Below, in pieces: positions 7,913 through 62,557 of a DNA stretch of 64,000 nucleotides; the stretch's first letter is position 1; each line of letters opens with the position of its first letter. The position numbers were made by a program, and so were the translations under genes. Under the pieces are notes generated by a model. That model was not told where the DNA came from. It worked only from the letters and a program-made list of their open reading frames with translations, and made no database searches. This DNA is from Prevotellaceae bacterium. Lineage in GTDB: Bacteria > Bacteroidota > Bacteroidia > Bacteroidales > Paludibacteraceae. The DNA lies in the NCBI GenBank assembly GCA_020636675.1, contig JACJXK010000010.1:8583-72582 (forward strand), written 5' to 3'.

Positions 7913-8881
7913 TTAAACCGTCATATTGTAATAACTTAATTTATTCTTGTATTTCTCTATAATCATCAACGGAATATTGAAAAGAGGAACATTGTAGTTT
8001 ATGCCAGTTTTTATACGCTTTCCTTTTAGCCAAAGATTTCCGTCAAACGATTGACAGATATTACTTTCAAGTAAATGAACAATATCAATGTATGATAACC
8101 CGGTATAACAAGCAAATAGAAATATATCCTTTACATGTTCTAGTCTTAAACAATCAAATTGTTTTCCAATGATTGCCTCTAATTCTTTTTCGGTCAAATA
8201 TCCTTTATCCACTTTCTTGACTGAAATTATATAACCTGTGAACGGATGACGTTGAATTATGCCTGTATTATGAGCAAATGTTACTATTTTTTTGAGGTAT
8301 TGAATCATCTTTGCCGCTACATTATGGCTTAATCTGCATTCGGTTTTTAAGAATACCTCGTAATCATTTACAAACATCAGATTCATATCTCGTAACAGCA
8401 TATCCGCCATTTTATAGCGATATTTTATAAATTCGCTTACACGTTGTCGTGCCAATAGGTATTTTTTATAAGTAGAATCTGATCTATCTACACCTACCAG
8501 TTTCTTTAAATCTGTGTTATGTTTATCAAAAAGAGTAAGGATAGTTTCATAGGAATCATCTATGCCTAGAAAAGAGTTTTTCAGAATGTCGGAAGTAACC
8601 CCCTTGCCGCCTGCTAATAAAGTATGGTAATGAGATTTTATTTTGGCTTTAATTCCATCCAATATATCATTGATCTGCCCAACTTCTTTGTTTCGTCCGA
8701 CAGCTTTTCCGGCCGAAACATTCCACAAATCAGGATCAATTTCAAGTTTTGTGCTAAACTGTGCCACTTCTCCATTAACTGTTATCCGAGCAATAATAGG
8801 CATATTGCCATTTGCTTTTTGCGCGTTCCTTTTTAGAAAAAACGATACGCTAAATGTACTTTTTGTTGTCTTCATTTTCAT
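7913..8881 (-). pseudogene. Tyrosine site-specific integrase, 3'-truncated
   Basis: The 322-aa ORF has a Bacteroidetes integrase N-terminal arm-binding and SAM-like region and the start of the catalytic domain (FLFACYTGLSYIDIVHL). It ends (..KYKNKLSYYNMTV*) before the expected H-x-x-R and catalytic Tyr segment. Its stop sits 18 bp from the Crp gene stop. Confidence 0.7.
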
Positions 8882-9076
8882 TAATTTTAATGTTACAAAC
8901 CTAAATTAAAACTCTAAAAATGAGATACTTCCGACAAGGACAATATGCGACAGGAATCAGGCAATTTTGAACAATCTGTGACCTATTTTTAAGATTTTCT
9001 GATAGGTCACGATTAAGTCATAAAAACTTGTCTTTTTTTGTCTAATCTTTGACTTTATGTGGTAAGGAGTTAGAAA

Positions 9077-9112
9077 CGAAAAAATCCTACAACCTGTTGA
9101 GATTGTAGGATT
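9077..9112 (-). terminator. Rho-independent terminator downstream of tRNA-Asp
   Basis: Stem aatcctacaa (9083-9092) pairs with ttgtaggatt (9103-9112). It is followed on the minus strand by a T6 run. Confidence 0.5.
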
Positions 9113-9159
9113 TGTCTTGTTTTTGTCGCCTTTTCGGCGCGTTACAATTGAACTTTTAG

Positions 9160-9233
9160 CGGTGCGGACGGGACTCGAACCCGTGACCCCATGCGTGACA
9201 GGCATGTATTCTAACCAACTGAACTACCGCACC
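9160..9233 (-). tRNA. tRNA-Asp (anticodon GTC)
   Basis: The reverse complement folds as a 74-nt cloverleaf: GGTGCGG-TA-GTTC-AGTTGGTTA-GAAT-A-CATGC-CTGTCAC-GCATG-GGGTC-ACGGG-TTCGAGT-CCCGT-CCGCACC-G. CCA is not encoded. Confidence 0.95.
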
Positions 9234-12065: not shown

Positions 12066-12429
12066 GCTCGTTGTTTTTTTTAATGACGGTCTTTCCCAAA
12101 GATAATAATAAGAATTGACAATAACGAGGGCTCTTATGTGTTTAATTTTGCTTTTCCTGGCCCAAAAGGAGCACAGATTGAATGGTTGTCTGGAATGGAG
12201 AAAAACGGGAGACTATAAAAAACAAATTGCTAAAGGTCAAGGCATCTTTTTTAAGAATCAATCCATCCAATCGGGATGGGTCTGTCGACAGAAAAGGAAG
12301 ACGGGACGACATTCCATAGAATTGCGCCGAGGATTTCCGCTGTCGTATTTTTTTGACATGATTTGTCGGATAAAACAGTTTCTTTTTCAAAAACACCTCA
12401 CCATCATCGGCAGGAGGATGTCTGTAATC

Positions 12430-35553: not shown

Positions 35554-35949
35554 TTCTATATTCCTTGATTTCTTTGTTGGCTTTCCTCTCTTTTCTCTTT
35601 TGGAGATGCTTTCCCATTTTCAAGTGGATGCAAATTTAGGCAAAAAACTTTAGAAACTAAAAAAGTTTTTTGTGTTTTCATGTTATTTAACACAGAACGG
35701 CTGGTTGTTTTCTCTCTTGTTAAGTAAGGTTATATATAATGGTCTAAAATTCATGAAATAAGGTCTGCTTTTTCTTTCGGGACGGTTGGTATAAGCCTAA
35801 TTCATTCCCTGTTTCGAATCGTGTGGGAATTGAAAGCATTTGCCTTTATGTCTGCAACCTGTATTTGTTAAAACGGTTCACATTAGTACAACCTATAGTT
35901 CTTCTCTTGACAATTTGAATTTTTGAATATAGACTTTCTGTTTCGCTAT

Positions 35950-36280
35950 TAGTGATTGTGAAAAAAAAACAACTTGGTGAAGTCGTTGCATTGTCGGCAA
36001 AATGCCACGTAGATTAACGGACGGAAACTATACGATGGACGTTTTTTATCGTCCCTTTTCTTCGGTAGTCCGATAATTGCCTTTGGCCGCGGAGTAGGGG
36101 ATGTGCGTGCCGCAGCGGGAAGAAACCTTTTTGTCCGAGGCAAGAGAGAATAAAAAAGGTTTTAGCGGAGGAACTTGTCGTACCTCTAGGAAAGCGGACA
36201 GCATCGCAGGTGCTACAAATAGATAATGCCTACGGCATTTTGTCAAAGTCGTCATAATTTGATTTTTTTTTTGACAATTA
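35950..36280 (+). repeat. Copy A (short, diverged) of the structured GC-rich repeat family
   Basis: It aligns with copies B and C through the ends (tagtgattgtgaaaaaaaaacaactt... / ...gataatgcctacggcattttgtcaaagtcgtcataattt). It also aligns through the core (gcctttggccgcggag.agggga.gtgcgtgccgcagcg...aaacctttttg.ccgagg...aataaaaaaggttttagcggagg...). It lacks about 115 nt that are present in B and C. Confidence 0.7.
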
Positions 36281-36474
36281 TTTAAATGAATTTTTTGGAA
36301 AATTCCAGCAAAACCGGAAAGTTTTAAAAAAAACGTTGTTTCTGATAAAATACTTTGAGGGATGCGAAAAAATGTATAATTTAATGGTTGTGAATTGAAG
36401 ATGTTTGTGGGCTTGGCTATATCCGGCTATCATTGACATCTCTCAATAAATGTAAAGAAATAGAGTGCTATTTC

Positions 36475-36505
36475 TTTGTTTTATTAAATTATGTTCATAA
36501 TTTTG
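36475..36505 (+). promoter_or_regulatory. Candidate Bacteroidetes sigma-A promoter for the giant gene
   Basis: TTTG (36475-36478) is followed 19 bp later by TAATTTTG (36498-36505), matching the -33 TTTG / -7 TAnnTTTG consensus. This would give a leader of about 285 nt. Confidence 0.3.
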
Positions 36506-36795
36506 CCAAACCCATGCTTTAGTGATAGATATATGGAAGCGTGGCCGGGGAGTATAGGAACTAATTACAAATTATATATAAGGAAGAAGACACTTCCTCT
36601 TTTTTGAAATTTAATTGATTGCATTTCGGGTTGGTCCCTTTATGGATAGGGGGAAGCCTTTTAGTTTATGCCGAATTGATTTTACTTATTTGTCTATTTT
36701 AAAGAGAGGTGTCTTTGGCTGAAATTTTACCCTTTTATAAGGAGGGAGTGTATGTTATGGAAAGAAATTTATTACATAGGGAAATACGGGTTGAT

Positions 36796-39700
36796 ATGAA
36801 AATCACAACAACATTATGGAAGAGGGGCGTGTTGTCGTTCCTTGCATTGCTGGCTGGTGTGGCGATGCTGGAGGCGCAGACTATCAGTGCGGATGAAACG
36901 TCTGCGTGTGAAAACGACCCGGTGGTATTGAAGGCCGAAGGTTTCGCCTCTTCGGTGAAAGCTATTGATTGGCTTAGAAGTACGGACGGAACGAACTGGA
37001 CTACAGTGAGGTCTACCTCCGGAAATGTGGGGACTTTCGTGGATGATATGCCTGGAATGGCTGTCCGTTATAAGGCGAAAGACCAAAACTCGGCAACAAT
37101 AACCAATACGGTCACTGTGACGTTGAGTACTAATTGTGCCGCAATTTGCCATACCACATCCACCGGTGATTATTTTTCCGGTACAGACTTCGATCCTGAA
37201 TCCGGAGTGACAACACCAACTCCTGCAATTCCAAGTGAGGTGGTCAATTATTTTGAAGAGAATGACATTACTCTTATTTCTCAGAATTCAACTTATGAAG
37301 TTACTACAGATTTGAGTTCCCAGTTTGGTTCGTATGTTCCTTCTCTGGATGAAGGTGGTAATAGTAACTATTATTATATGTATACGAATCCTCCGAGTAG
37401 CTCCCAACCTTTTGAATACCGGTTTAAATGTTCCACGTATGTGGGTAAGCATTACCGGTATACCATGCGTTTTTATTTGTTGAAGAAGAGCGATAATTGC
37501 GGAGGTTCTGCAAAAATAAAATTGGAGACCGGACATGGTAACCAGACTACGGATAGGGCTACTCTCGATATCTATGACGATGCCGCAGATGTGAAGATGA
37601 AATCGTTGGATATTACTGAGACTTTTGGATCTACAGATCTCAATATAGGAGGTTCTGATTATGCCAATAAGCTGTTGCGTGTGGAAATCACCTATTATGG
37701 TTATTTTCCGGATGACAAATACGATCCGAATAGTGGCACATATAATGGATTGCAGTATTTTACACTGAAACCTCTATTCCAACAGTTTGATGGCTGCTTT
37801 GCTTTGGCCATCGACTATATCTCTGCGGAGATTGAGTCTGTTTGTATGAACCGAGGTGCTGTCTGTGTGGGTGAGAGTGCGGTTGTCAATGCGGCTGGTT
37901 TCCCTAAAAATGCAAAATATACATGGGAAGTGGAAAATGGAGGTGTATGGGAACCTGTTGTTATCGGCGGAATCACTATGGATAGAACCGATTTGCAAAG
38001 TGTCAATATTCCAGTCACAACGGTGGGAAAAAAGATATATAGGGTTAGGGATGCAAATAGTACTGTATCTATTGAATTTACAGTGACAGGTAAGGATTGT
38101 GATCCGGTTCAGCCTACCGATATTCTTGGCCCGGAATCTTCTTGTGCACCTGTTAATAATTTGAAGTTCTCGGTGTCGCCGGTAGATGCCAACAGCTTGG
38201 TCCGTTACTCTTGGGAGATGATAACACCTAGCGGAAACGTTTTGACAAATAATGTCTCGTTTACAGGTGGTTCCCTTAATCCTGCAGGTAGAGGAGATAC
38301 GATTTATGTCACTTTGAATGGACAGGCAGAGGAGGGTGAGTATACGCTGAAGGTGCAGCCTATCATCAAGAGAAATGGAGTGGATGAATTGGTGGGGGCT
38401 CCGATAACGCGGACATTTAGGCTACATCAGACTCCTAGCGTCTCTCTGAAACTTTCCGGTTACGCCGACGGAGTGAGTGAGGGCGACAAGAAACTTTGTC
38501 CTTCCGATAAGAATCAACGCATAGTGGCTGTCGCTGATGTGATGCCACCGTCCTATTCTGACTATATTTATACTTGGGAACATGCTACTGCCATAGCAAA
38601 TACGGACAGTGCGGTAGTTAATCTACCGACAGCATCCTCTTGTGATGGCTCGATGAAGTCGTTGGCTATTGGAGTTACGGTCAGTATCAAGGACATTGGC
38701 TGTCCTGCGACGAAATCCAATACCTATACTTTGGAAGACGTTGTAGCTCCAACTGTCGACTGTGGGTCGTTGACCTCTGCCCAATTGAATTATGTGTTGG
38801 GTGCAACTCAGAAGGAAGTGACAGTCGACCTCCCTATTCCGAATTTCGGCGCCGGTTGTGATTCTAATCCTTCCTTAGATATTGATGTGTTGTTTTCCGG
38901 TAAGGATGGAACTTCTTTCGTGAAGAATTTCCATATAGAAAAGAAGAATTTGGCAACTGCCGACAAGAAGGTGACTCTTCCTGCCGGTACGGCAGCCGTG
39001 ACTTATACGGTGACGGATGGTTGTGGGAAGACTGCTTCCTGTACGGCAACGATTACGGTGGTAGACAATACCGCTCCAAAAATTGATTGTGACAAAATAA
39101 AATCATATACAGCCCATTTGTCTAAACAGGAAGCCTGTGTGGCTGTGCCCGGTTATGCTCCTACGGAGTTGCCTATGTTGACGGCTCCTGTCTTGACGGA
39201 CATGAACGGAGTGGATGGCAACATTACAGGAATATATATGGGACGCAGGGAAAACTGTGTGTCTGAACCTGCCGCATCGCCATCTTTGTTCACGGAGTCA
39301 ATCGGACTGAATGCCAGCTATAAGTTGGGAACATCTTATATCCTTTGGGCTTTCACGGATAAGTCTGGTAATACCTCTTACTGCTTGTCGTCTGTTTCTG
39401 TGATTGATGACAAAGAGCCTACGCTAAATTGTCCGGCTGATGCCGATTTAGGAGATATTGCCGCTAATGTGGGCACCTGTTCCTTGTCTTTGGACTCTTT
39501 GTTGGTCAAGATGCCGCAAGGCCAAAAGCCTTCGGCTACCGATAACTGTTCGTCTAGCAGCAGCATCACCGCAAAGATGTATTACCGTAAGGTGGGCGAC
39601 GCTACTTGGATTGAGATTGTCGACCCTACGGCACTCCTCTTTGATAAAGGCGTGCAATATGAGTTGGATTGGCGTTTCTACAAGAAAACAACTAGTGCGT

Positions 39701-42700
39701 CGGTAGACAAAACGGTATATGTGGATTGTCCTCAGACATTCAAGGTCGTAGATAAGGAGGCTCCGGACTTCGACTGCGAATCGTTGCAGGATATCCGTGT
39801 CATGGCAAACAGTTATCGTCTATGGCATAGGGACAATGGAGGATATTGGTCTACGGAGTATGATGACTTCGCTTCCGGATCCGGATCAAGCTCGGAATCG
39901 GATTATGTCTTCTCCCTGAAGCCATATTTTGATGACAAGACACTTCAGATGCATGGGGATGTGACCGACAATTGTGGCGGTGGTGTAAAGGTGAAGATAG
40001 AGATAGATAATGTGGACGGAGAGAAAACCGTTATCGCATCTCTCTCTGCTTTCCAAAAATATGAGTTCCAAATCGGAGCTTCCACTGTTTACTATACCTT
40101 CTCTGACGATGCCGATCCTGCCAACTCGAAGACTTGTGAACAGACGGTTGTTGTCTCTTCCCAAGATGCTCCGATTCCTGATTGTGGCGCATTGCACGAT
40201 ACCGTGCTTTATGCCAATGCAGACTGCGAGGCAACCATGCCGATAGCTTTGTCGCAGATTCCGACGGCTACCATCAAATACAATAAGGAGGTGAAATACG
40301 TAAATGATGAGACATCTGGTTGTAATGCCATCTATGATTATGATCGGTTGAGTTATCGTAAATCTCTTACCGGAGAACGAACAATGCTTGGTTATCCTTA
40401 TGCTGTAAAATTAATAAGAGAAGATGGAACATCTGATCTGTGCGAAAATATATATACAGATGCAGATACGGTACAAAGCAAGTTGGTTCAACACCGAAAG
40501 TACTGGCCGATAGAAACAATTTGTAAAACAGATGTTGTAAGCACATTGAAGATAAAACGGACGAATTTTGCCTCCGTACCGACATGCGCCACTGCTCCGT
40601 TCCATTTGGGAACCAATAAGTTGGTTTGGTATTTCGAAAATGCGGATGGATTGAATGATAGTTGTACCACCGTCATTGTGGTGAAAGACACGACAGCTCC
40701 GTCTGTTATCTGTGGCGATTGGGAAAAGAACGGTACTTTCTATGCGGACGAAGAGTGTAAGGTGCCGGCTTCTGAGGTGGCTCTGAAAAAGCCAACAGCA
40801 ACAGATCTTCATGCAACGGACAACTGTACGGTATCTTCAGACTTTGATATATCTTGGAATAGGACGTTTAATGGCACTACTACAACAGATTTGTCCGCAC
40901 CGTTTGAGGTTGGAATGACAACCATAAAATGGATTGTCAAAGATGAATCGGGCAACGCCTCGTTCTGCTACCAAGAGATTGAGGTGTTAGATACTATTGG
41001 TCCTAAGTTTGATTGTAGCACATTAGTAGACTTGAAGGTTTCTGCCGATGGTGATTGTGAGGCGAAATCCTCTGCGGTTATTGCTGCCGGACTGGTTACT
41101 CCGGAGACGGCGGCCGACGATGCTTGTTCGCCTACCGGCGCAACAATAAAAGGCGTTGGAGAACGTAGTGACGGAAAAGATATATTTACCGATCCATATC
41201 CAAAGGGAACGACCACAATCACATGGACATTCACAGATGGAGTCGGCAATAAAACGGTTTGTAAACAAAATGTCATAGTGACCGATGATACGGATCCTCT
41301 CTTTGTTGATTGTGATGCAATGACGGATGTTGTGGTAAAACTAAATCCGGAGGAGTGCTCTGCTTCGCTCGACAAGGTGAAGGCGTCTCTTGGTTCTCAT
41401 ACGGCAGAGGATAACTGTACGGGAACGATTGATGGTGTCCCTATGTTGTTACTGCCGGACGGATCGTTGACGGCATTGCCTTCTGCATTTAAGAAAGATA
41501 CGACATTTGTTATCGTTTGGGTGTTTGAAGATGAGAGTGGCAATAAGACGGAGTGTAGCCAAAAATTGGTGATTAAGGATGTTACTCCTCCAGATCCGTC
41601 CGGTTCTTGCCCGGATCCGACGAAGACGGTGACTGCGACCGTTGAATGTAGTGTAAGTTACAGCGACTTAGGTCTTTCCCCAATCACCATAGATGATCCT
41701 TGCGACGGACCTCTTGTTTCTGAAATGGTCGGAAAGATTAAGCAACATGACGGTTCCGTCATCACTTATAGAGGGGAAGCAGAATTGAATGCCGCCACTT
41801 ATCCTGTTGGAACACATACATTCTATTGGATATTCACAGACAAAGCCGGACTAAAAGATACTTGCGAGATGCGGCTGACGGTGACAGATGGCATCCTTCC
41901 TGTTGTGGAAGACTGTGACGTCGCTAAGGATATTACAGTGACAGTTTCCGATGATGAGTGTGCCATCCATCCGGAAGATCTGAAAGGTTTGATAGTTCAT
42001 CCAAAAGCATACGACGAATGTGATGATGAAGCCGCCGGAATAGGAAAGGTTTTCTTGGATCCTATCATTGAACGTTGGTTTGATGGCTATCGTCTGGACG
42101 ATGCCGAAGGTAAACCGATAGATTGGGATTCTCAGGATTTTCCAAAGGGGACTACTACTATAAAATGGATATTTAAAGATAAGGCCGGCAATGAGGTCAC
42201 TTGTGAAAAACGTGTGACGGTAGAGGATCATACGGCTCCTTATTTCGATTGCTCGACACTTGATCCGGATACGCTTCGTCCTGTTGCGTTGGCCGGCCGT
42301 TGTGACGTGCAGTTCAATGAAATCACTTTCAATGACTATTATGCCGAGGATAAGTGTACGACAGACTCGATAAAAGGTGTCTTGACACTGAATGGATCGA
42401 CGTTCTTGCCTACTGATTACACAATGGAGGTTGGCAAAATTTACACATTGCAGTGGGTCTTTGTGGATGAGGACGGAAACAAGAAAACTTGTCCGCAATG
42501 GATAGTGCCAAGCCATAGCATGCCGATCAACTTTGACTGCTCTACATTGCAGACGGTTGAAAAATTGGCAACGGAAGGCGAATGCACCATCTCTTCTACA
42601 GACTTGGCATTGCCTGTCCCTGAAACAAGGGATACTTGTACGAAAGAGCAGATTGTGGCAACGGGTTCTCGTAGCGACGGACTGGCAATGACGGCCGACT

Positions 42701-45700
42701 ACCCGACGGGAACGACCATTGTGACGTGGACTTTTGTGAGTCCATACAATCTGGATTCTGTCAAGACTTGCGATCAGACAGTTTCTGTTTTAGGCAACAA
42801 GAAGTTTGACATAGATTGTGAGACTTTGATCTCCGTGGCCCGCGATACAATTAGCGGTTGTGGCACTAGCGATATTGGTGCTGATATTGAGGCTCCGGTA
42901 GTGGACGACCCTTGTGCCAATCCTGATTCCTCTTATTTCAAGAGAGTTGGTGTGGGTACACGTAGTGATGCGTTGGCATTGACAGATCCTTATCCGTTGG
43001 GTGTTACAACTATCAAATGGATATTTACGGACTTCACCGGCTCGGTAAAGGACTCTTGTAACCAAGATGTGGTTGTGAAGACGGATCTTGAAGTTGACTT
43101 TGATTGTGATTCGCTTACAAAAGATACTATCAAGGTGGCTGTGAAACCTGGCGAATGTACGGTTTCTTCTGATAAGTTGAACTTGCATTTCCCTAAGGCG
43201 GCCAATCCTTGTACCGGTGATTCTATAGAAGGTGTCCCTTCCCGTCAGGGAGGATTGTCAATGTCCGATCCTTATCATACGGGTATGACGAAGATCACGT
43301 GGACATTCACGGACACAACGGGTATTTTGGCAAAACCAGTTTCTACTTGTTTCCAATGGGTGCAGGTGGGTGATGTTAATAAAGTGCCGGTAGATTGTGA
43401 TAATATGCCGGATACGTTGATAAAACTGCCGGAGAATGATTGTGAGATATTGTTCAAGGAGTTGAACTTTAATATACCTCCGGTTTATGACTTGTGTACG
43501 GGAGTTCATATCGACTCCGTTGTAACCCGTACTTCGGGTGCGGCGTTGGATGATCCGTTTAAGGTGGGCAGGGATACCATCTATTGGGATTATTCGTTCG
43601 AAGGTCAAGATTTCAGATGTACGCAGATTATTGCGGTGAAAGATAGCATGGCTCCTGAATTCGATTGTTCTACGTTGGATACAATCCGCTTGGCTTCGGT
43701 TCCCGGTAAGTGCTATACCGATTTGGACAGTGTCTTGGCAGAGTTTCCTAATCCACTGCCAACGGCAACGGAGGTCTGTACGGGACAGAAGATCGAAGGT
43801 AAATATGCTCAGGCTGATGGTTCTCCATTGCCTTCTAAAATAGCTGTGGGTGATACGCTCTTTGTCTATTGGACATTTATGGATACGGCGATCAATCTTG
43901 TTCCGAAGATTTGTGAACAACCGGTGATTGTGATTGGAGACTTGGAGCCGGAGGTTAATTGTGACGAGATAATGCCTATCAATATTTATATAGAGAGTGG
44001 ATGTGATACCACACTGAAGCCAATAGATATTGTCACTCCGTTCGCATTGGACGCTTGTACAAAGGATACGGTTTATGGCGTGGCTACCCGTTCGGATGGG
44101 AATGAATTGTTCTCCAAATATCCGGTAGGCGCTACGACGATAACATGGAAGTTCATAAGTCCATACTCTACGGCTGTCGCCTCTTGCGAACAAGAGGTCC
44201 ATGTCTATACGGAGAGCCAGCTGATATTTGATTGTGAGACATACTCCAATGATACGGTCAAGGTGAAAGTTCCGGAAGGGGAGTGCTTTGTGGATGTGAC
44301 ATTGGAAACTCCATTTGCGTTGAATCCTTGTCCTGACAACACGGATCAAGATACTATTTGGGGTGAGCCTAAGCGTAATGATAATAAACTTATCTCCGAT
44401 CCATTCCCTACCGGAATAACAAAGGTGGAATGGACGTTCACCGACCATTCCGGTACGTTGCGTGATAGTATAATCATGTGTACTAAGGTTGTTCAAGTAG
44501 GTGACGTGAATGAAATTCCGGTGAAGTGCGAAAATATTCCGGATACGGTGTTCGTGCTAGAACCGAATGATTGTGACATCAACTGGAGCGAGATGAACTT
44601 CAATGTCCCTGATGTGAAGGATTTGTGTACAGGAGCGTTGGTTACGCCAACTTTTGATCGTACATCTGGCATCGATATGTCGCTTCCTTTCAAGGTGGGT
44701 GTGGATACGGTAAAATGGCATTATGACTTCTCGGGACAGACATATACCTGCTCGCAGGTGATAAAGGTGAAGGATAGCATGGAGCCAGAATTTGATTGTT
44801 CTACGTTGGATACGATAAGGATGAAGTCTTTGGCGGGTGAGTGTTATACTACACTGGATAGTCTGAAACTTGCGTTGGGTAATCCGGAGGCGTTGGATAA
44901 ATGTAGTGATAAGAAGATTCCGGGAGTGCCGACCATGATGGACGGATCGGCTTTGCCTTCGCAGATAGCAGTGGGCGATACGTTGATCGTGAAGTGGACC
45001 TTCTTTGATGATACAATAAATACTGTCGCTAAGGTTTGCGAACAGGCTGTTCTCGTAATTGGTGACGGAGAACCGAAATTCGAATGTTCTTCTTTGAAGG
45101 ATACGGTCCTCTATTTGCAGTTGGTTGATGAGTGCGAACTGCCAGCAGGTAGGTTGACGCTGAATGTTCCGGTAGCAAAAGACTCCTGCACGGATGCGGA
45201 TGTTCCGGGTGTGGCCACCCGTTTGGATGGCGCCAATCTGACCGACGTTTACCCTAAGGGTACTACGGAGGTAAGTTGGACATTTATCAGTCCATATAGC
45301 ACTGCAACCAGAACATGTTCTCAAAATGTGATTGTAAAAGATACGTTCCCTCCTGTGCTCTCTTGTGAGACACTGAAGGATACCATAAAGGTGAGGATTA
45401 CCACCTCCTCTGCTTCCGACAATTCGGTGACTTCTGCTGAGGCGGAGGCTGCAGGTCTGGTTGCTCCTTCGGTGACCGACCCTTGTGACGGAAACATCAC
45501 GGCGGTTGGTTCTCGTGACGATGGTAAAACCATGCAGGATGTTTATCCATTAGGCTCTACCAATATAGTGTGGACCTATACGGACAAATCCGGCAATTCG
45601 GATACTTGCCGTCAGGTGGTTCTGGTGGAAGACTGGATTTTGGATACGTTGTATTGTCCTCAGGATTTGGAAGGAAAGACATTCTCTTGTGTGACCGGAG

Positions 45701-47778
45701 TTCCTGATCCTTACGCTACATTTGAAGAGTTCAAGTTGGCGGGAGGTTCCTTCTCCAATGAGGGAAAGATAAAGGAAGGCTCGTTCACCTACACGGATAA
45801 GATGGATGGAGACTCTTGCTTGATGACCTTTATCCGTACTTATAAGGTGACGGATGTCAGAAATAATGAGATTGCTTGTTCTCAGACGGTCTCTGTTAAG
45901 GATGACGTTGCTCCTGTCTTTGACCAAGAGTTGTCGGACATTAAGATCTCTTGTACGGATGAGATTCCTGCTGTTCCTGTGGTCACGGTTACAGACAACT
46001 GCGATCCGAACCCGACATTGAGTTATTACACAACAGACGACAGGTCGGACAATCCTTCTGATTGTTCTTACTATACGTATGATATCAGACATATATGGAA
46101 GGCAATTGATCGATGTGGAAATGAAGAAACTAAGATTCAAGTTGTTCATGTGGTGGACGATCAGAATCCGGTTATCGATTTCCCGAAGGATTGGAAGGAT
46201 ACGGTACTTTCCATTTACCGAAAGGGATGTGTGTTTGAGGTTCCTGATTTCACGGATACCGTTCGTACTTTTGTCTCTGACAATTGTACGGATATATCTA
46301 ACATTAAGGTTTGGCAGCATCCTTCAGCTGGCGACACTCTCCTGAGTTCTGTGCGGGTTTGGGTGTACATCAGCGATATGTGCGGCAATATGGATAGCTT
46401 GTCACGTTATGTGCTTGTCCCTGCTGCGGGTAGTGTGGTCTCCTTGGTGGCTCATGATACTACGCTTTGCGGATCTGACGCTTCTGTTATCAACTTGTGG
46501 AGTCAGCAGATCCGTTATGCGGAGGGTACGATTACGGTGAAGGATTGGGACGAAAGTCTTATTGACATCGCAAGCTCATTCGTGTATGATTGTTATAGGG
46601 ATACGTTGGCTGAGTCCAATCTGGTTTATAGCGATAACCCTAATACTTATTATTCGAAGTTCTATGGTTCGAATAAGGTGGAGAGGGATTCGATAAGAAA
46701 TTCGAGAATCAAGATAAAAAAGATGTTGCAAAGCGGACGATACTACTTTGTCGCAATGGATACGATGACCTTGTGCTCTGATACGGCTTCGGCCTATCTC
46801 ACAATACATGAACGTCCTCGTATCTCGATGAGGTCTGAGTTGCAGAAGATATGTGAGCTGAACGGTGTGGATACGGATGAGTTACACGAATATGTGAATT
46901 GTGTGAATAATATGGGCGCAGAGATTACAGATCAAGGTTGGTTGTTGGGCGACTCTATATATAACAGCAATGATACGATTTATTACGAGGATGACAAGAA
47001 GTCGTTTGTCTATTTCGCCGAGAATGAGTGCGGACGTAGTACGAGTCTTGATACGTACAAAGACTTCTGTAATAATCCTCCAAGAACATACAAGGATAGT
47101 CTTGCTGCGGTAGGTGGAAGTGCCGACTTGTACAATCTGTTAAAGACGGACGACCTCAAAACAAGGGATTCTTTGTTTGCCGAGGTTCACAGACGTTATA
47201 GTCCGGATTCTCTATTCTTATTGCCGACGCCTAATGATCCTGCCCGCATCTGGCTGGGAGATGAGGTTACTCTGACTGTGGTCACGAATTATGTTTATGA
47301 TGAGGTCTCTTGGTTTGAGGTAATGGGCAACTACGACCGTAGGTTTACGACAGGATTCGAACATGATGAATTTGTCTTCTCTGATCCTTCTGACCAAGAA
47401 GACGATAAGTTGTATTCGAGTGAGTATGGCGATATGAACTATATCACCCAAACTCCTAGAGACACGGTTAGATATTATGTCACTATTACAGACAAGGTCT
47501 GCCCTTCTGTGGCAAGTAATGTGGTGAGTGTTGATGTTCTGAGCAAGGTGCCTACGGCAATCACTCCTTATGATAGGGATGGATTGAACGACGTCTTTAT
47601 GAAGGGGCATTCGGTCATGGTATTTAATCGCTACGGACAGAAGTTGTTCGAAGGAGTGGATGGATGGGATGGTACTTATAGAGGTCAATTGGTTGATCCT
47701 GGTGTCTATTTCCATCAAGTTGTAATGCGTGACGGAACGGTGATTAAGGGTACTATAGAAGTAGTGAAAGTGAAATAA
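36796..47778 (+). CDS. Giant (about 3,660 aa) secreted HYR/Ig-like repeat protein with T9SS type-B C-terminal sorting domain (putative adhesin)
   Basis: Single uninterrupted 11-kb ORF. ATG 36796 gives the signal peptide MKITTTLWKRGVLSFLALLAGVAMLEAQ. There are at least 24 tandem 90-100-aa modules with the recurring pattern P.A.DNC...G.RSDG...YP.GTT.I.W.F.D..GN...C.Q.V.V.D..P.F.C. The last 80 aa or so (ITPYDRDGLNDVF...VFNRYGQKLFE...WDGTYRG...GVYFHQV...GTIEVVKVK) resemble the gliding-motility/T9SS type-B CTD. Confidence 0.9.
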   Translation: MKITTTLWKRGVLSFLALLAGVAMLEAQTISADETSACENDPVVLKAEGFASSVKAIDWLRSTDGTNWTTVRSTSGNVGTFVDDMPGMAVRYKAKDQNSATITNTVTVTLSTNCAAICHTTSTGDYFSGTDFDPESGVTTPTPAIPSEVVNYFEENDITLISQNSTYEVTTDLSSQFGSYVPSLDEGGNSNYYYMYTNPPSSSQPFEYRFKCSTYVGKHYRYTMRFYLLKKSDNCGGSAKIKLETGHGNQTTDRATLDIYDDAADVKMKSLDITETFGSTDLNIGGSDYANKLLRVEITYYGYFPDDKYDPNSGTYNGLQYFTLKPLFQQFDGCFALAIDYISAEIESVCMNRGAVCVGESAVVNAAGFPKNAKYTWEVENGGVWEPVVIGGITMDRTDLQSVNIPVTTVGKKIYRVRDANSTVSIEFTVTGKDCDPVQPTDILGPESSCAPVNNLKFSVSPVDANSLVRYSWEMITPSGNVLTNNVSFTGGSLNPAGRGDTIYVTLNGQAEEGEYTLKVQPIIKRNGVDELVGAPITRTFRLHQTPSVSLKLSGYADGVSEGDKKLCPSDKNQRIVAVADVMPPSYSDYIYTWEHATAIANTDSAVVNLPTASSCDGSMKSLAIGVTVSIKDIGCPATKSNTYTLEDVVAPTVDCGSLTSAQLNYVLGATQKEVTVDLPIPNFGAGCDSNPSLDIDVLFSGKDGTSFVKNFHIEKKNLATADKKVTLPAGTAAVTYTVTDGCGKTASCTATITVVDNTAPKIDCDKIKSYTAHLSKQEACVAVPGYAPTELPMLTAPVLTDMNGVDGNITGIYMGRRENCVSEPAASPSLFTESIGLNASYKLGTSYILWAFTDKSGNTSYCLSSVSVIDDKEPTLNCPADADLGDIAANVGTCSLSLDSLLVKMPQGQKPSATDNCSSSSSITAKMYYRKVGDATWIEIVDPTALLFDKGVQYELDWRFYKKTTSASVDKTVYVDCPQTFKVVDKEAPDFDCESLQDIRVMANSYRLWHRDNGGYWSTEYDDFASGSGSSSESDYVFSLKPYFDDKTLQMHGDVTDNCGGGVKVKIEIDNVDGEKTVIASLSAFQKYEFQIGASTVYYTFSDDADPANSKTCEQTVVVSSQDAPIPDCGALHDTVLYANADCEATMPIALSQIPTATIKYNKEVKYVNDETSGCNAIYDYDRLSYRKSLTGERTMLGYPYAVKLIREDGTSDLCENIYTDADTVQSKLVQHRKYWPIETICKTDVVSTLKIKRTNFASVPTCATAPFHLGTNKLVWYFENADGLNDSCTTVIVVKDTTAPSVICGDWEKNGTFYADEECKVPASEVALKKPTATDLHATDNCTVSSDFDISWNRTFNGTTTTDLSAPFEVGMTTIKWIVKDESGNASFCYQEIEVLDTIGPKFDCSTLVDLKVSADGDCEAKSSAVIAAGLVTPETAADDACSPTGATIKGVGERSDGKDIFTDPYPKGTTTITWTFTDGVGNKTVCKQNVIVTDDTDPLFVDCDAMTDVVVKLNPEECSASLDKVKASLGSHTAEDNCTGTIDGVPMLLLPDGSLTALPSAFKKDTTFVIVWVFEDESGNKTECSQKLVIKDVTPPDPSGSCPDPTKTVTATVECSVSYSDLGLSPITIDDPCDGPLVSEMVGKIKQHDGSVITYRGEAELNAATYPVGTHTFYWIFTDKAGLKDTCEMRLTVTDGILPVVEDCDVAKDITVTVSDDECAIHPEDLKGLIVHPKAYDECDDEAAGIGKVFLDPIIERWFDGYRLDDAEGKPIDWDSQDFPKGTTTIKWIFKDKAGNEVTCEKRVTVEDHTAPYFDCSTLDPDTLRPVALAGRCDVQFNEITFNDYYAEDKCTTDSIKGVLTLNGSTFLPTDYTMEVGKIYTLQWVFVDEDGNKKTCPQWIVPSHSMPINFDCSTLQTVEKLATEGECTISSTDLALPVPETRDTCTKEQIVATGSRSDGLAMTADYPTGTTIVTWTFVSPYNLDSVKTCDQTVSVLGNKKFDIDCETLISVARDTISGCGTSDIGADIEAPVVDDPCANPDSSYFKRVGVGTRSDALALTDPYPLGVTTIKWIFTDFTGSVKDSCNQDVVVKTDLEVDFDCDSLTKDTIKVAVKPGECTVSSDKLNLHFPKAANPCTGDSIEGVPSRQGGLSMSDPYHTGMTKITWTFTDTTGILAKPVSTCFQWVQVGDVNKVPVDCDNMPDTLIKLPENDCEILFKELNFNIPPVYDLCTGVHIDSVVTRTSGAALDDPFKVGRDTIYWDYSFEGQDFRCTQIIAVKDSMAPEFDCSTLDTIRLASVPGKCYTDLDSVLAEFPNPLPTATEVCTGQKIEGKYAQADGSPLPSKIAVGDTLFVYWTFMDTAINLVPKICEQPVIVIGDLEPEVNCDEIMPINIYIESGCDTTLKPIDIVTPFALDACTKDTVYGVATRSDGNELFSKYPVGATTITWKFISPYSTAVASCEQEVHVYTESQLIFDCETYSNDTVKVKVPEGECFVDVTLETPFALNPCPDNTDQDTIWGEPKRNDNKLISDPFPTGITKVEWTFTDHSGTLRDSIIMCTKVVQVGDVNEIPVKCENIPDTVFVLEPNDCDINWSEMNFNVPDVKDLCTGALVTPTFDRTSGIDMSLPFKVGVDTVKWHYDFSGQTYTCSQVIKVKDSMEPEFDCSTLDTIRMKSLAGECYTTLDSLKLALGNPEALDKCSDKKIPGVPTMMDGSALPSQIAVGDTLIVKWTFFDDTINTVAKVCEQAVLVIGDGEPKFECSSLKDTVLYLQLVDECELPAGRLTLNVPVAKDSCTDADVPGVATRLDGANLTDVYPKGTTEVSWTFISPYSTATRTCSQNVIVKDTFPPVLSCETLKDTIKVRITTSSASDNSVTSAEAEAAGLVAPSVTDPCDGNITAVGSRDDGKTMQDVYPLGSTNIVWTYTDKSGNSDTCRQVVLVEDWILDTLYCPQDLEGKTFSCVTGVPDPYATFEEFKLAGGSFSNEGKIKEGSFTYTDKMDGDSCLMTFIRTYKVTDVRNNEIACSQTVSVKDDVAPVFDQELSDIKISCTDEIPAVPVVTVTDNCDPNPTLSYYTTDDRSDNPSDCSYYTYDIRHIWKAIDRCGNEETKIQVVHVVDDQNPVIDFPKDWKDTVLSIYRKGCVFEVPDFTDTVRTFVSDNCTDISNIKVWQHPSAGDTLLSSVRVWVYISDMCGNMDSLSRYVLVPAAGSVVSLVAHDTTLCGSDASVINLWSQQIRYAEGTITVKDWDESLIDIASSFVYDCYRDTLAESNLVYSDNPNTYYSKFYGSNKVERDSIRNSRIKIKKMLQSGRYYFVAMDTMTLCSDTASAYLTIHERPRISMRSELQKICELNGVDTDELHEYVNCVNNMGAEITDQGWLLGDSIYNSNDTIYYEDDKKSFVYFAENECGRSTSLDTYKDFCNNPPRTYKDSLAAVGGSADLYNLLKTDDLKTRDSLFAEVHRRYSPDSLFLLPTPNDPARIWLGDEVTLTVVTNYVYDEVSWFEVMGNYDRRFTTGFEHDEFVFSDPSDQEDDKLYSSEYGDMNYITQTPRDTVRYYVTITDKVCPSVASNVVSVDVLSKVPTAITPYDRDGLNDVFMKGHSVMVFNRYGQKLFEGVDGWDGTYRGQLVDPGVYFHQVVMRDGTVIKGTIEVVKVK

Positions 47779-47799
47779 TTTCTTGAGATTATAGGTGAG

Positions 47800-47832
47800 G
47801 AGGGTTCCATGGGTGCCATGGGACCCTCTTTT
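47800..47832 (+). terminator. Rho-independent terminator of the giant gene
   Basis: A 13-bp stem, gagggttccatgg pairing with ccatgggaccctc (one G-U), has a 3-nt loop and is followed by TTTT. Confidence 0.7.
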
Positions 47833-47878
47833 GGTATGTGGGCTGTCCGAACCTTTGCGGCGTTGGATTTGTTGTTTG

Positions 47879-47913
47879 CTTAGTAATGATAAAAAAATAA
47901 CTTCCGCAACTTT
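47879..47913 (+). repeat. 35-bp segment duplicating the right-flank sequence of repeat copies B and C
   Basis: cttagtaatgataaaaaaataacttccgcaacttt matches cttagtaatggttaaggaataacttccgcaacttt (48366-48400) at 31 of 35 positions by eye. Copy B is therefore bracketed by imperfect direct repeats. Confidence 0.6.
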
Positions 47914-48369
47914 AAGTGATTATGAAAAAACAACTTGCTAAAGTTCAAAACATCTTGAAAGTATGCTTTCCAGGCATTGCATTGATAGCAAGCATTTCGT
48001 AGATTTTCGAACATGATTTCTAAAACGTCTCTTTTTCAACAGGCGTACACTCGCCTTTGGCCGCGGAGGAGGGGAGTGCGTGCCGCAGCGTGAAAAAACC
48101 TTTTTGCCCGAGGTACGAGGGAATAAAAAAGGTTTTAGCGGAGGGACGTGCCGTACCTCCCGGAAAGCGGGCAACAGCGCAGGCACTTTTGCTTACTTTT
48201 CTTGCCGGAGAAAAGTAAGTGCCCGTCCGGCAGGAGGACGGAAATAATTGTCGTGTATGGTGCATTCCTCCGGAATGCGGTTGCCGATGCCTATTTCCCC
48301 CTCTACAAAGAGATAATGCCTATGGCATTTTGTCAAAATCGCCATAAGTTGTTTTTTACCGATTACTTA
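47913..48369 (+). repeat. Copy B (full length, 457 bp) of the structured GC-rich repeat; MITE-like imperfect terminal inverted repeats
   Basis: The left end taagtgattatgaaaaaacaacttg matches the reverse complement of the right end taagtaatcggtaaaaaacaactta at 19 of 25 positions. The GC-rich core has several hairpins (48095-48136, 48140-48160, 48192-48219, 48262-48278). It differs from copy C at only a few percent of positions by eye. Confidence 0.8.
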
Positions 48370-48382
48370 GTAATGGTTAAGG

Positions 48383-48462
48383 AATAACTTCCGCAACTTT
48401 TTAACAGAAACTCTTTGCATTTAAATTTCGGTAAGCAGAAATCTGCGGAAGTTATTTTTTTT
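48383..48462 (+). terminator. Conserved long hairpin module plus T run adjoining repeat copy B
   Basis: aataacttccgca (48383-48395) pairs with tgcggaagttatt (48444-48456), followed by a T run to 48462. The same module follows copy C. Confidence 0.45.
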
Positions 48463-48520
48463 ACTGTTACTTAATGAATTTTGTTAATGAAAAGTCTATC
48501 TTTTCAAAAAAAAGAGGAAC

Positions 48521-49941
48521 ATGAGATGGAACGACTCTTTGGTCTCGAATAGTAACCGTTATCAGTGGTTTGTGTTGGCCAATGTCATGTTTGGCACATT
48601 CATGGCAGTGCTGGATGCAACGGTGGTTAATGTGGCAGTGCCTGATATGATGAAGGCTTTTGGTGTGGGTATGTCTGAGATGGAATGGGTGGTAAGTGGT
48701 TATATGTTGGCATTTGCCTTGGTTTTGCCAGCCTCATCTTGGTTTGCTGACAGGTATGGCAATAAACTCCTATATTTTGTGGGCTTGTTTATGTTCACTT
48801 TGGGCTCTTTTTTGTGCTCGTTGTCCGTGAGTGAGCATATGCTTGTCGCTTCTCGTATTGTGGAGGGGATGGGTGCCGGCGTTATACAGCCGGTAGGTCT
48901 GACTATAGTTACAAGGGCATTTCCTCCTGAGAAAAGGGGGGTGGCGCTTGGCTTTTGGGGTGTCGCAATTGCGGCTTCCGTCTCTTTTGGCCCTATCGTG
49001 GGTGGATTTTTAGTGTATTAATTTGGATGGAAGTATATATTCTTGGTCAACGTTCCTATTGGAATCTTGGCTATGGTTCTGACTTGGTTGCTCCAAAAGG
49101 AGTTCTCTTTCTCAAAGAAGACGAGGTTCGATTATTTGGGTTTTATTCTTATTTCTGTCTCGCTTGTATCTTTGTTGTATGCGCTCGATTATGTGAATAG
49201 GTCGACCAATCTGCTAGGATGGTCATCTCCCGTTGTCTCTGTGTTGATGCTTGTGTTTGTCCTGTTTCTTGGCCTCTTTGTCGCCTTTTCTCTTAAAGCA
49301 AAAAGTCCGTTGTTGAATTTACGTCTGTTTGCCAATCGCAATTTTATGGTCGGGAATCTTATCTCTTTTGTTTTTGGCTTTGCCGTTTTTGGTACTAATC
49401 TTGTCCTTCCTTTGTATCTGCAGAATGTGTTAGGCTATACGGCCCTCCAGTCGGGGTTGGTGTTTCTGCCGGTTGGGTTTGTCCAAGGTTTGCTCTCTCC
49501 CTTTGCCGGAAAGTTGACGGACCGGTTGGATGCTCGCTATTTTGTTGTGGTCGGGTTGCTCCTGTTGGCTTTGAGTTTTGAATTATGTTCCTCATTTTCT
49601 CTTCGAACAACGCATGATTCGGTGATGCTTCCTTTGTATATCAGAGGGGTGGGGATGGGCCTTTTGTTCTCTCCTATGACAACGTTGTCGTTCGTAGGCT
49701 TAAATAGGTTGAAAATGGGTGATGCCTCTGGTATTTTGAATACGATGCGTCAGGTAGGAGGCTCTTTTGGAGTGGCGGTTTTAGGCGGTCTGTTGTCCGA
49801 ACCATATCATGCAACTTGAATGCGGTGTCGTCGGAAAGGTTGTTGCAGTACGTTATTTCTGTTGATTTCTCATTCAAAATAGCTGTCTATCTTATGGTTG
49901 CCGGTGTTGTCTTGTCATTCTTCTTTACACGTAATAAGTAA
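48521..49941 (+). pseudogene. DHA2 (EmrB/QacA-type) MFS transporter, in-frame TAA plus a 3' frameshift
   Basis: ORFs 48521..49021 and 49043..49819 are in the same frame, separated by TAA at 49019-49021 within the conserved GPIVGGFLVY*FGWKYIFLVNVPIG segment. The last TM helix (..KIAVYLMVAGVVLSFFFTRNK*) reads in another frame from about 49819. Confidence 0.8.
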
Positions 49942-61660: not shown

Positions 61661-62118
61661 TAAGTGATCATGAAAAAACAACTTGCTAAAGTTCAAAACA
61701 TCTTGAAAGCATGCTTTCCGGGCATTGCATTGATAGCAAACATTTCGTAGATTTTTGAACATGATTTCTAAAACGTCTCTTTTTCAACAGGCGTACACTC
61801 GCCTTTGGCCGCGGAGGAGGGGAGGTGCGTGCCGCAGCGTGAAAAAACCTTTTTGCCCGAGGTAAGAGGAAATAAAAAAGGTTTTAGCGGAGGGACGTGC
61901 CGTACCTCCCGGAAAGCGGGCAACAGCGCAGGCACTTTTGCTTACTTTTCTTGCTGGAGAAAAGTAAGTGCCCGTCCGGCAGGAGGACAGAAATGATTGT
62001 CGTGTATGGTGCATTCCTCCGGAATGCGGTTGCCGATGCCTATTTCCCACTCTACAAAGAGACAATGCCTATGGCATTTTGTCAAAATCGACATAAGTTG
62101 TTTTATGCCGATTACTTA
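61661..62118 (+). repeat. Copy C (full length, 458 bp) of the structured GC-rich repeat
   Basis: It is collinear with copy B from taagtgatcatgaaaaaacaacttgc to ccgattactta, with only scattered substitutions and the same orientation. Confidence 0.8.
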
Positions 62119-62131
62119 GTAATGGCTAAAG

Positions 62132-62210
62132 AATAACTTCCGCAACTTTTTGACAGAAACTCTTTGCATTTAAATTTCGGTAAGCAGAAATCTGCGGAAG
62201 TTGTTTTTTT
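62132..62210 (+). terminator. Conserved long hairpin module plus T run adjoining repeat copy C
   Basis: aataacttccgca (62132-62144) pairs with tgcggaagttgtt (62193-62205), followed by a T run to 62210. It is homologous to 48383-48462. Confidence 0.45.
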
Positions 62211-62557
62211 ACTGTTGCATAAAATAAAAGTTGAAAATACATGCTGGATCCGGTTTGTGAAAATTATGTTGTGTTTGGTTCTGTTGTTTAGATTATCAAA
62301 AATCAGAATGTTGAAATGAAAATTCGTTTTATATACTTAATTTATAGAAGTCCCCTTCATTCCTTCTGCTGAAATCGTTACCCACTTAATTTGACACGGA
62401 CCTATGTTTTTTTGTCAATAACAAGAAGCTGGAAATATAGGGACTGTTAATCCGGTGTTAAAAGAAAATGATTTAATTTAAGAAAACATATGGGCAACTC
62501 CTGAGTTTTCATAGTCTGTTATTTTGAAGTACCTTTGTCTGGAAAAAATCGAGTGGT

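Follow-up and report, generated by a model that had tools for sequence, protein, structure and literature searches.

Three copies of a repeat, designated A, B, and C, lie in the 64,000-nt stretch of DNA analyzed here (hereafter the window). The 0.46-kb repeat reported in a preliminary description of this DNA is genuine, and the three copies are in the positions given there, all on the same strand and all intergenic. Their extents had to be revised, as B and C each reach ~100 nt farther in the 3′ direction and B also has an extra 34-nt piece at its left. A candidate for a fourth, degraded copy lies far upstream. The features are as follows.

12215–12390, + strand: candidate degraded fourth copy (relic), with its 5′-end motif ATAAAAAACAAATTGCTAAAGGTCAAGGCATCTT still recognizable (nhmmer E = 0.009, a weak match)
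35949–36285, + strand: copy A, of the short subfamily (~335 nt), with the same ends and core
47881–48471, + strand: copy B, the fullest form (~590 nt; nhmmer model positions 2–593)
47881–47914, + strand: outer left end of copy B, 34 nt, TTAGTAATGATAAAAAAATAACTTCCGCAACTTT
47913–47936, + strand: inner left terminal inverted repeat of copy B (I2, 24 nt, 79% complementary), TAAGTGATTATGAAAAAACAACTT, with TA directly before it
48030–48300, + strand: core of copy B, GC-rich (50–57%), hairpin-dense and non-coding
48346–48369, − strand: inner right terminal inverted repeat of copy B, AAGTTGTTTTTTACCGATTACTTA when read on the + strand, followed by TA
48368–48471, + strand: 3′ hairpin module of copy B, in which the left arm AATAACTTCCGCAAC and the right arm GCGGAAGTTATT pair around a loop of 38 nt, with a T run behind them (I3)
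61661–62218, + strand: copy C, with inner left end, core, inner right end, and hairpin module

The genes of the window near these copies include TetR and RND efflux genes and those for a 3689-aa HYR-domain protein, an MFS protein, Wza/Wzz-like proteins, a PBP1-type penicillin-binding protein, and MatE. At the loci outside the window (which carry L numbers below) the neighbors include ClpB, the leu operon, RimM, GltB, and a NusG-like protein, and the genes beside the copies are ordinary housekeeping genes. The copies are mostly co-directional with their neighbors, and divergent and convergent cases also occur. No transposase gene was found in the window or adjoining any copy.

Several other features of the neighborhood were recorded. 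The MFS gene just 3′ of copy B is split into two ORFs (48521–49021 and 49043–49819), whereas in another sample (L002) it is a single ORF of at least 385 aa, a difference that suggests a pseudogene polymorphic among strains. A single ORF of 3689 aa (36709–47778), in which HYR is the only Pfam match and which has internal repeats at 43434 and 44565, lies between copies A and B (35949–48471), which are in direct orientation; this arrangement could be fortuitous, or the ORF could belong to a unit flanked by MITEs. The Bacteroidetes-type promoter consensus nearest to any copy, a perfect TTTG-N-TAnnTTTG, is at 36475–36505, past copy A and ahead of the giant ORF, which it probably serves from outside the element. 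The relic at 12215–12390 sits between a 4-alpha-glucanotransferase gene and a NOV_C/VWA gene. On the minus strand, a tyrosine-integrase-like ORF with Arm-DNA-bind_5 and Phage_int_SAM_5 domains, and no match to a catalytic domain, adjoins a tRNA gene (9160–9233, − strand), and the region 7913–9233 may be the edge of an integrated element. At one locus outside the window (L097), an ORF at 1–748 with a PDDEXK_2 domain (Rpn-like “putative transposase”) is convergent with the copy and stops 83 nt from the end of its hairpin module; as this is a single case, the adjacency is probably a coincidence.

Architecture of the Copies

Read 5′ to 3′, copy B consists of an outer left end, an inner left end, the GC-rich core, an inner right end, and the hairpin module, which includes the outer right end. 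The core was correctly described as richer in GC than the spacers that flank it (26–35%), and the four hairpins reported in it are all present, at most ~1 nt from where they had been placed. It is also the most conserved part of the element across diverged copies. Every unit is limited by a ~22-nt end motif, AGTRAT-N4-AAAAAA-YAACTT, in inverted orientation, and the same motif is found at all ends and all loci. The imperfect inverted-repeat ends noted previously correspond in B and C to arms of 24 nt that are 79% complementary and include a perfect AAAAAACAACTT. Copy B has an additional, outer inverted-repeat pair that is 91% complementary. Its outer left piece (47881–47914) is a direct repeat of 48368–48402, is complementary to the outer right arm, and forms the arm pairs I1 (23 nt at 91%) and I5 (16 nt at 81%). 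The same 34-nt piece is found on four other copies at unrelated loci (L100, L106a, L108, and L113). Copy C does not have it, and the sequence directly upstream of the TA of copy C is unrelated. Copy A lacks both a 117-nt internal block and the hairpin module. Copies B and C are 96% identical, and A is about 71–83% identical to them in the shared core.

The flanking TA that had been suggested for the three window copies is found at nearly all ends of the family. Over all copies, TA directly adjoins, or lies no more than 1 nt from, 30 of the 33 left-type ends, as it does 28 of the ~31 credible right-type ends, and the ends that do not have it mostly have TT or AA. This TA could belong to the element itself instead of being a duplicated target. 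Identity between copies ends at the end motifs or TA, and flanking sequence is never co-duplicated.

The fullest copies contain five end motifs, three direct and two inverted, in the following arrangement.

First: outer left, direct
Second: inner left, direct
Third: inner right, inverted
Fourth: left arm of the hairpin module, direct
Fifth: outer right, inverted

All five are present in copy B, L106a, L108, and L113, while L100 has both left motifs and is cut by the end of its contig. Other copies use fewer of them. Copy C, L089, L093, L097, L102, and L104 start cleanly at the inner left motif, and copy A, L105a, L105b, L105c, L107, L099, and L109 stop cleanly at the inner right motif, the 3′ flanks of copies without the hairpin module diverging directly past the inner right terminal inverted repeat. 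The hairpin module itself (~100 nt) bears the same 22-nt motif at its ends and is missing in short copies. Two explanations of this modular arrangement were rejected. Insertion of the core into a hairpin module at an internal TA is ruled out because the whole module, rather than the remainder of one, stands after the core, and the module is not an independent MITE because there is no solo module among all of the copies mapped. The 34-nt outer left piece is not consistent with simple nested insertion, and its origin is not explained by the MITE model proposed below.

Copies at Other Loci

Further copies were reached in two ways, through relatives of a spurious ORF on the minus strand of the element and by scanning metagenomes with a 21-mer from the core. 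The ORF has eight relatives in 5.8 billion proteins, from MAGs labeled Paludibacteraceae; the six that were retrieved are all inside copies of the element, and their contigs hold further copies. The 21-mer scan gave 16 more stretches from two JGI samples. All copies were placed by a profile search (nhmmer), and loci repeated across samples were merged before counting. The total is 24 or more loci whose flanks are unrelated, at least 20 of them outside the window, in Paludibacteraceae-type MAGs and metagenomes. The copies come from at least two lineages, being found in the species of the window, in MAG GCA_041669085.1, in two JGI metagenomes, and in ENA and Logan runs.

Two subfamilies can be distinguished, a long one of 455–590 nt and a short, A-type one of ~335 nt, whose members (copy A, L105b, L105c, L107, and L112c) are only ~70–80% alike by eye. 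Beyond this, a 76-nt deletion between CGGAGG repeats is found in L089 and L097, the 117-nt block is present or absent, L109 has a deletion between A runs, L110, L091, and L094 are truncated at the 5′ end, and a lone 5′-end fragment is present in L089 near 2480–2562. Indels of 1 nt are scattered even among near-identical copies. Such variation looks like decay, whole modules having been lost between direct repeats, 5′ ends truncated, and in one case only an end fragment left.

Every strain recovered (by identical TetR, MFS-fragment, or MatE proteins) has A, B, and C, with no empty site or insertion polymorphism, and copy A is 99% identical in all of them. The nearest other relatives found, with 69% protein identity in MatE, lack the element over 11 kb of sequence that is rearranged and not collinear at this locus, and none of the loci recovered is orthologous to a filled site of another lineage. 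Short-read contigs of other samples stop inside copies B and C (L001 and L003 break within copy C), as is expected of a multi-copy repeat. Twice, one 3′ half with its downstream flank follows different 5′ halves and upstream genes in different samples (L115, 2150–2700, versus the window, and L098 versus L109), which reflects either recombination between copies or chimeras of metagenome assembly. The flanks of some copies (L089 at ~1160–1190 and ~2470–2490, L110 at ~370–390) contain a short palindrome, ATATCCCGYAGGGATA, that appears to be a distinct, REP-like repeat in these genomes.

Searches of wider collections did not extend this distribution. A GC-rich pattern of 18–19 bases from the core had 82 chance matches in high-GC genomes among GTDB species representatives and a single chance match, in coding sequence, in Bacteroidales; all three window copies match the pattern exactly, and therefore no GTDB species representative has it in a true copy. 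Four scans of viral contigs (three core patterns and the end motif) gave zero matches or chance singles, and distant-mode BLAST against plasmids and phages gave no match.

Coding Capacity

The element is non-coding. The ORFs inside it had been dismissed as not credible genes, and all of them are indeed broken by frameshift or deletion among the copies; a 1-nt indel that distinguishes B from C already interrupts those on the minus strand. The ORF of 79 aa is frameshifted or interrupted in 9 of the 15 copies with the region and missing in eight more, and substitutions are spread over the three codon positions (125/145/173). A 27-codon N-terminal ORF that runs from the left end was considered as the remnant of a transposase and rejected because its frame is not kept among copies.

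The Structured RNA Alternative

The preliminary description left open whether the element is a MITE, a structured RNA, or both. The RNA reading supposes a set of paralogous non-coding RNA genes of ~450–550 nt on the plus strand, with or without a mobile carrier, in which the ends would form a closing helix and the 3′ hairpin and T run a terminator. Some properties of the element agree with this. Its plus strand has a strong predicted fold (−190 kcal/mol, z = −5.4), and long copies finish in a hairpin and a T run. The fold of the minus strand (−167 kcal/mol, z = −4.9), however, departs from its shuffled controls almost as strongly, and base composition accounts for about half of the 23-kcal/mol gap between strands. 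The 3′ hairpin was not called in a simple terminator scan because its 38-nt loop is too long. The element had not been assignable to a known RNA before, and it matches none in Rfam: with the covariance models of release 15, nothing was found for it at gathering score, the only such match in the window being the tRNA (9160–9233), and even at E ≤ 10 the element region yields only sub-threshold chance matches. No Bacteroidetes −33/−7 promoter consensus (TTTG…TAnnTTTG) is present at or in any window copy, and orientation to neighboring genes varies and includes the convergent cases. An internal TAGATTTT box was considered as a promoter and rejected because it is not conserved between copies.

Covariation in the hairpins does not exceed that of shuffled alignments. 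When the reported hairpins, the end pairing, and the 3′ hairpin were scored jointly over 23 copies, covariation was 0.046 compared with 0.047 for shuffles, and 367 of 500 shuffles equaled or exceeded the observed value; double changes are seen in five pairs, and 110 of 500 shuffles have at least as many. In hairpins iii and iv, as in several other stems, the only departures are broken pairs, and diverged copies do not compensate. By our own tally, ~62 single changes in stems preserve the pair and ~105 break it, that is, 37% are preserving, which by our own estimate is roughly what unconstrained drift would give at a 2:1 transition bias. RNAalifold on 17 cores gave −15 kcal/mol with an unfavorable covariation term (+0.4). 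In this core structure 95% of the cells are paired and four pairs have double changes, a number reached by 6 of 500 shuffles, but this slight excess is marginal and, as the tool itself warns, relatedness alone can produce it. Four diverged short copies have a consensus fold of just −10 kcal/mol, and whole helices are deleted in otherwise intact copies.

It had also been argued that C-G to U-G changes in two stems are tolerated only if the plus strand is the RNA. The two changes are there, although they do not form a significant pattern over the 23 copies, and the strand argument is weak. G-U-type departures outnumber A-C-type ones (60 to 36), with a nominal p of 0.018 for cells that share ancestry and so are not independent. 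Moreover, the plus strand is the G-rich one, and a strand-asymmetric C-to-T bias could therefore account for the excess.

Taken together, the Rfam, covariation, fold, promoter, and terminator results leave an RNA role for the element unsupported, and this reading is considered unlikely. Of the interpretation offered earlier, the MITE half is supported (ends, TA, dispersal, and lack of coding capacity) and the RNA half, with neither an Rfam match nor covariation, does not. One property is unusual for a MITE, namely that in old copies the GC-rich core is kept better than the ends, as are two stretches within it, GACACTCGCCTTTGGCC and GGCAACAGCGCAGG, that are unpaired and yet conserved. This hints at gene conversion or some function. 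The core also has a slight bias toward pairing on the plus strand. There is a slim chance that the core is a functional RNA or protein-binding DNA module riding a TA-targeting MITE, or that the nested, five-motif ends represent a mode of transposition so far undescribed for bacterial MITEs. In the former case, the core might, for example, act in trans as a regulatory or scaffold RNA, or it might be a signal for processing or termination that has been co-opted where genes end.

Proposed Transposition Model

The reading that best accommodates the family, to which we assign a probability of about 0.65, is a MITE moved in trans by a TA-targeting DDE transposase of the IS630/Tc1-like type or of an IS5 subgroup. 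It is based on the combination of inverted-repeat ends, terminal TA, dispersed copies with unrelated flanks, lack of coding capacity, neutral internal drift, and indel-rich variants. At 335–590 nt the copies fall within the 50–1000 bp of MITEs, they have terminal inverted repeats, and they occupy many unrelated sites (at least 24 loci). From these properties we infer that the element is mobile. An autonomous element or transposase with these ends was not found in the window, in ~290 kb of related loci, or in viral contigs, plasmids, or phages.

In the proposed mechanism, a DDE transposase encoded elsewhere in the genome, of the IS630/Tc1-mariner type or of a TA-duplicating IS5 subgroup, would bind the end motifs, cut at the ends, and insert the element at TA, which would be duplicated. 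The use of different pairs of left and right motifs may give rise to the ~590-, 555-, 455-, and 335-nt forms, so that the choice among five end motifs would produce discrete length classes, and the remaining forms would result from truncations and from deletions between short internal repeats. The GC-rich, palindromic interior would be cargo under neutral drift. As side effects, the host would acquire stable hairpins and T runs in its intergenic regions and sequences through which copies could recombine, and its short-read assemblies would break at these points. Some IS5 subgroups generate duplications of TA or TNA, and one of these may be the mover. In vitro, ISY100, an IS630-family element, inserts at TA, and occasionally at AA or TT, and needs only its 24-bp inverted repeats (PMC2170065). 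The TA flanks of the element, with their occasional AA or TT, and its ~24-bp ends agree with what the ISY100 transposase requires and does in vitro (PMC2170065).

Two other modes of spread have to be weighed against transposition by a DDE enzyme. The many hairpins, the slightly favored plus strand, and the usual co-orientation of copies on the same contig (three to four in the window, three in L105, and two in L106) would suit an element that an HUH enzyme mobilizes in single-stranded form, such as an IS200/IS605-type PATE or a REP/RAYT-like element, or the carrier of an omega-RNA-like guide or scaffold used in trans. The ends of IS200/IS605 are not known to have terminal inverted repeats. The element has true ones, with one motif in both orientations, and one contig has two copies 4.5 kb apart in opposite orientation, so that the lack of inverted-repeat ends and the strand-specific orientation that define IS200/IS605-type PATEs are both contradicted. 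Genes for TnpA, TnpB, IscB, or RAYT are absent from all loci examined, and there is no Rfam match, which covers HEARO and other omega-RNA-type families if Rfam 15 holds them. Movement of this kind is hence very unlikely.

Equally improbable is site-specific integration of small units by a tyrosine or serine recombinase, with the 34-nt direct repeats of copy B as attL and attR. Such imperfect repeats do flank the core at five unrelated loci, and the window contains the tyrosine-integrase-like ORF (7913–8881). This ORF is, however, 27 kb away and adjoins a tRNA gene, at least seven copies with an intact left end have clean ends and no left repeat, and there is no common att-like target in the flanks. 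In addition, the left version of the 34-nt sequence is distinguished from the right one by the same differences at most loci, and both are therefore inherited parts of the element rather than fresh duplications. Finally, that plain segmental duplication or recombination spread a non-mobile intergenic sequence is barely credible, for although no empty sites were found and the two cases of the same 3′ flank with a different 5′ half could reflect exchange or chimeras, homology at the 24 or more loci stops exactly at the inverted-repeat ends or TA and flanks are never co-duplicated.

Comparison With Known Elements

The MITE reading places the family beside several described in other bacteria. Published bacterial MITEs have inverted-repeat ends and 5′-TA-3′ termini, and their transcripts are predicted to fold stably (PMC2229807). 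RUP (repeat unit of pneumococcus) and the other bacterial MITEs derived from IS630/Tc1-mariner elements are, like the present element, non-coding, intergenic, multi-copy, and presumed to be moved in trans, and they share with it terminal inverted repeats of ~24 bp and TA at both termini (PMC2229807; PMC2170065). The ends of RUP match those of IS630-Spn1, whereas no cognate IS was found for the present element in the loci examined. The element (335–590 nt) is also four to five times longer than RUP (107 nt), has a GC-rich interior and several nested end motifs, and comes from a different phylum. Correia/NEMIS elements of Neisseria resemble it in their inverted-repeat ends, terminal TA, and length variants that differ by an internal block, as well as in having transcripts that fold into long stem-loops and in being able to sit at gene ends (PMC2229807), but they are 107–155 bp and have no sequence similarity to it.

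Similar to the element in size and variability are the MITEs of Porphyromonas gingivalis (MITE239, MITE700, MITEPgRS/MITE464, and BrickBuilt), which belongs to the same order and whose MITEs are 240–720 bp or more (PMC2575886; PMC4596501). They have “highly variable structures” that arise from internal deletions, insertions, and repeats, and few are intact at both ends (PMC2575886; PMC4596501); indel-rich MITE forms of 700 bp are known in Bacteroidales (PMC2575886). Their ends (GAGACC…, ACGTCAG…) match the IS5-family elements ISPg1, ISPg3, and ISPg4 (PMC4596501) and are unlike AGTRAT-N4-AAAAAA-YAACTT. The P. gingivalis MITEs have known parent IS elements, and the present element does not have an internal tandem minisatellite. 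MITE464, suggested by its size, was rejected on end sequence and internal structure.

A modular organization is also known from BOX elements of Streptococcus pneumoniae, where, as in the present element, modules are present or absent between copies and a strong secondary structure is predicted. BOX is not known to have clear transposon-type inverted-repeat ends with TA flanks, and there is no sequence relation between the two.

Significance

The element is most likely a fresh example of a well-known kind, the small, gene-less relics of transposons, rather than a new structured RNA, and the family does not open a new class of system. Its presence explains why assemblies of this uncultured Bacteroidales lineage are fragmented at these points, and the copies mark likely sites of recombination or mis-joining. 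The hairpins and T runs lie beside genes such as those for the 3689-aa HYR-domain surface protein, efflux transporters, and a penicillin-binding protein, and they could affect where the transcripts of these genes end. To the few MITE families described in Bacteroidales, the element would add a long, GC-rich one with several nested ends.
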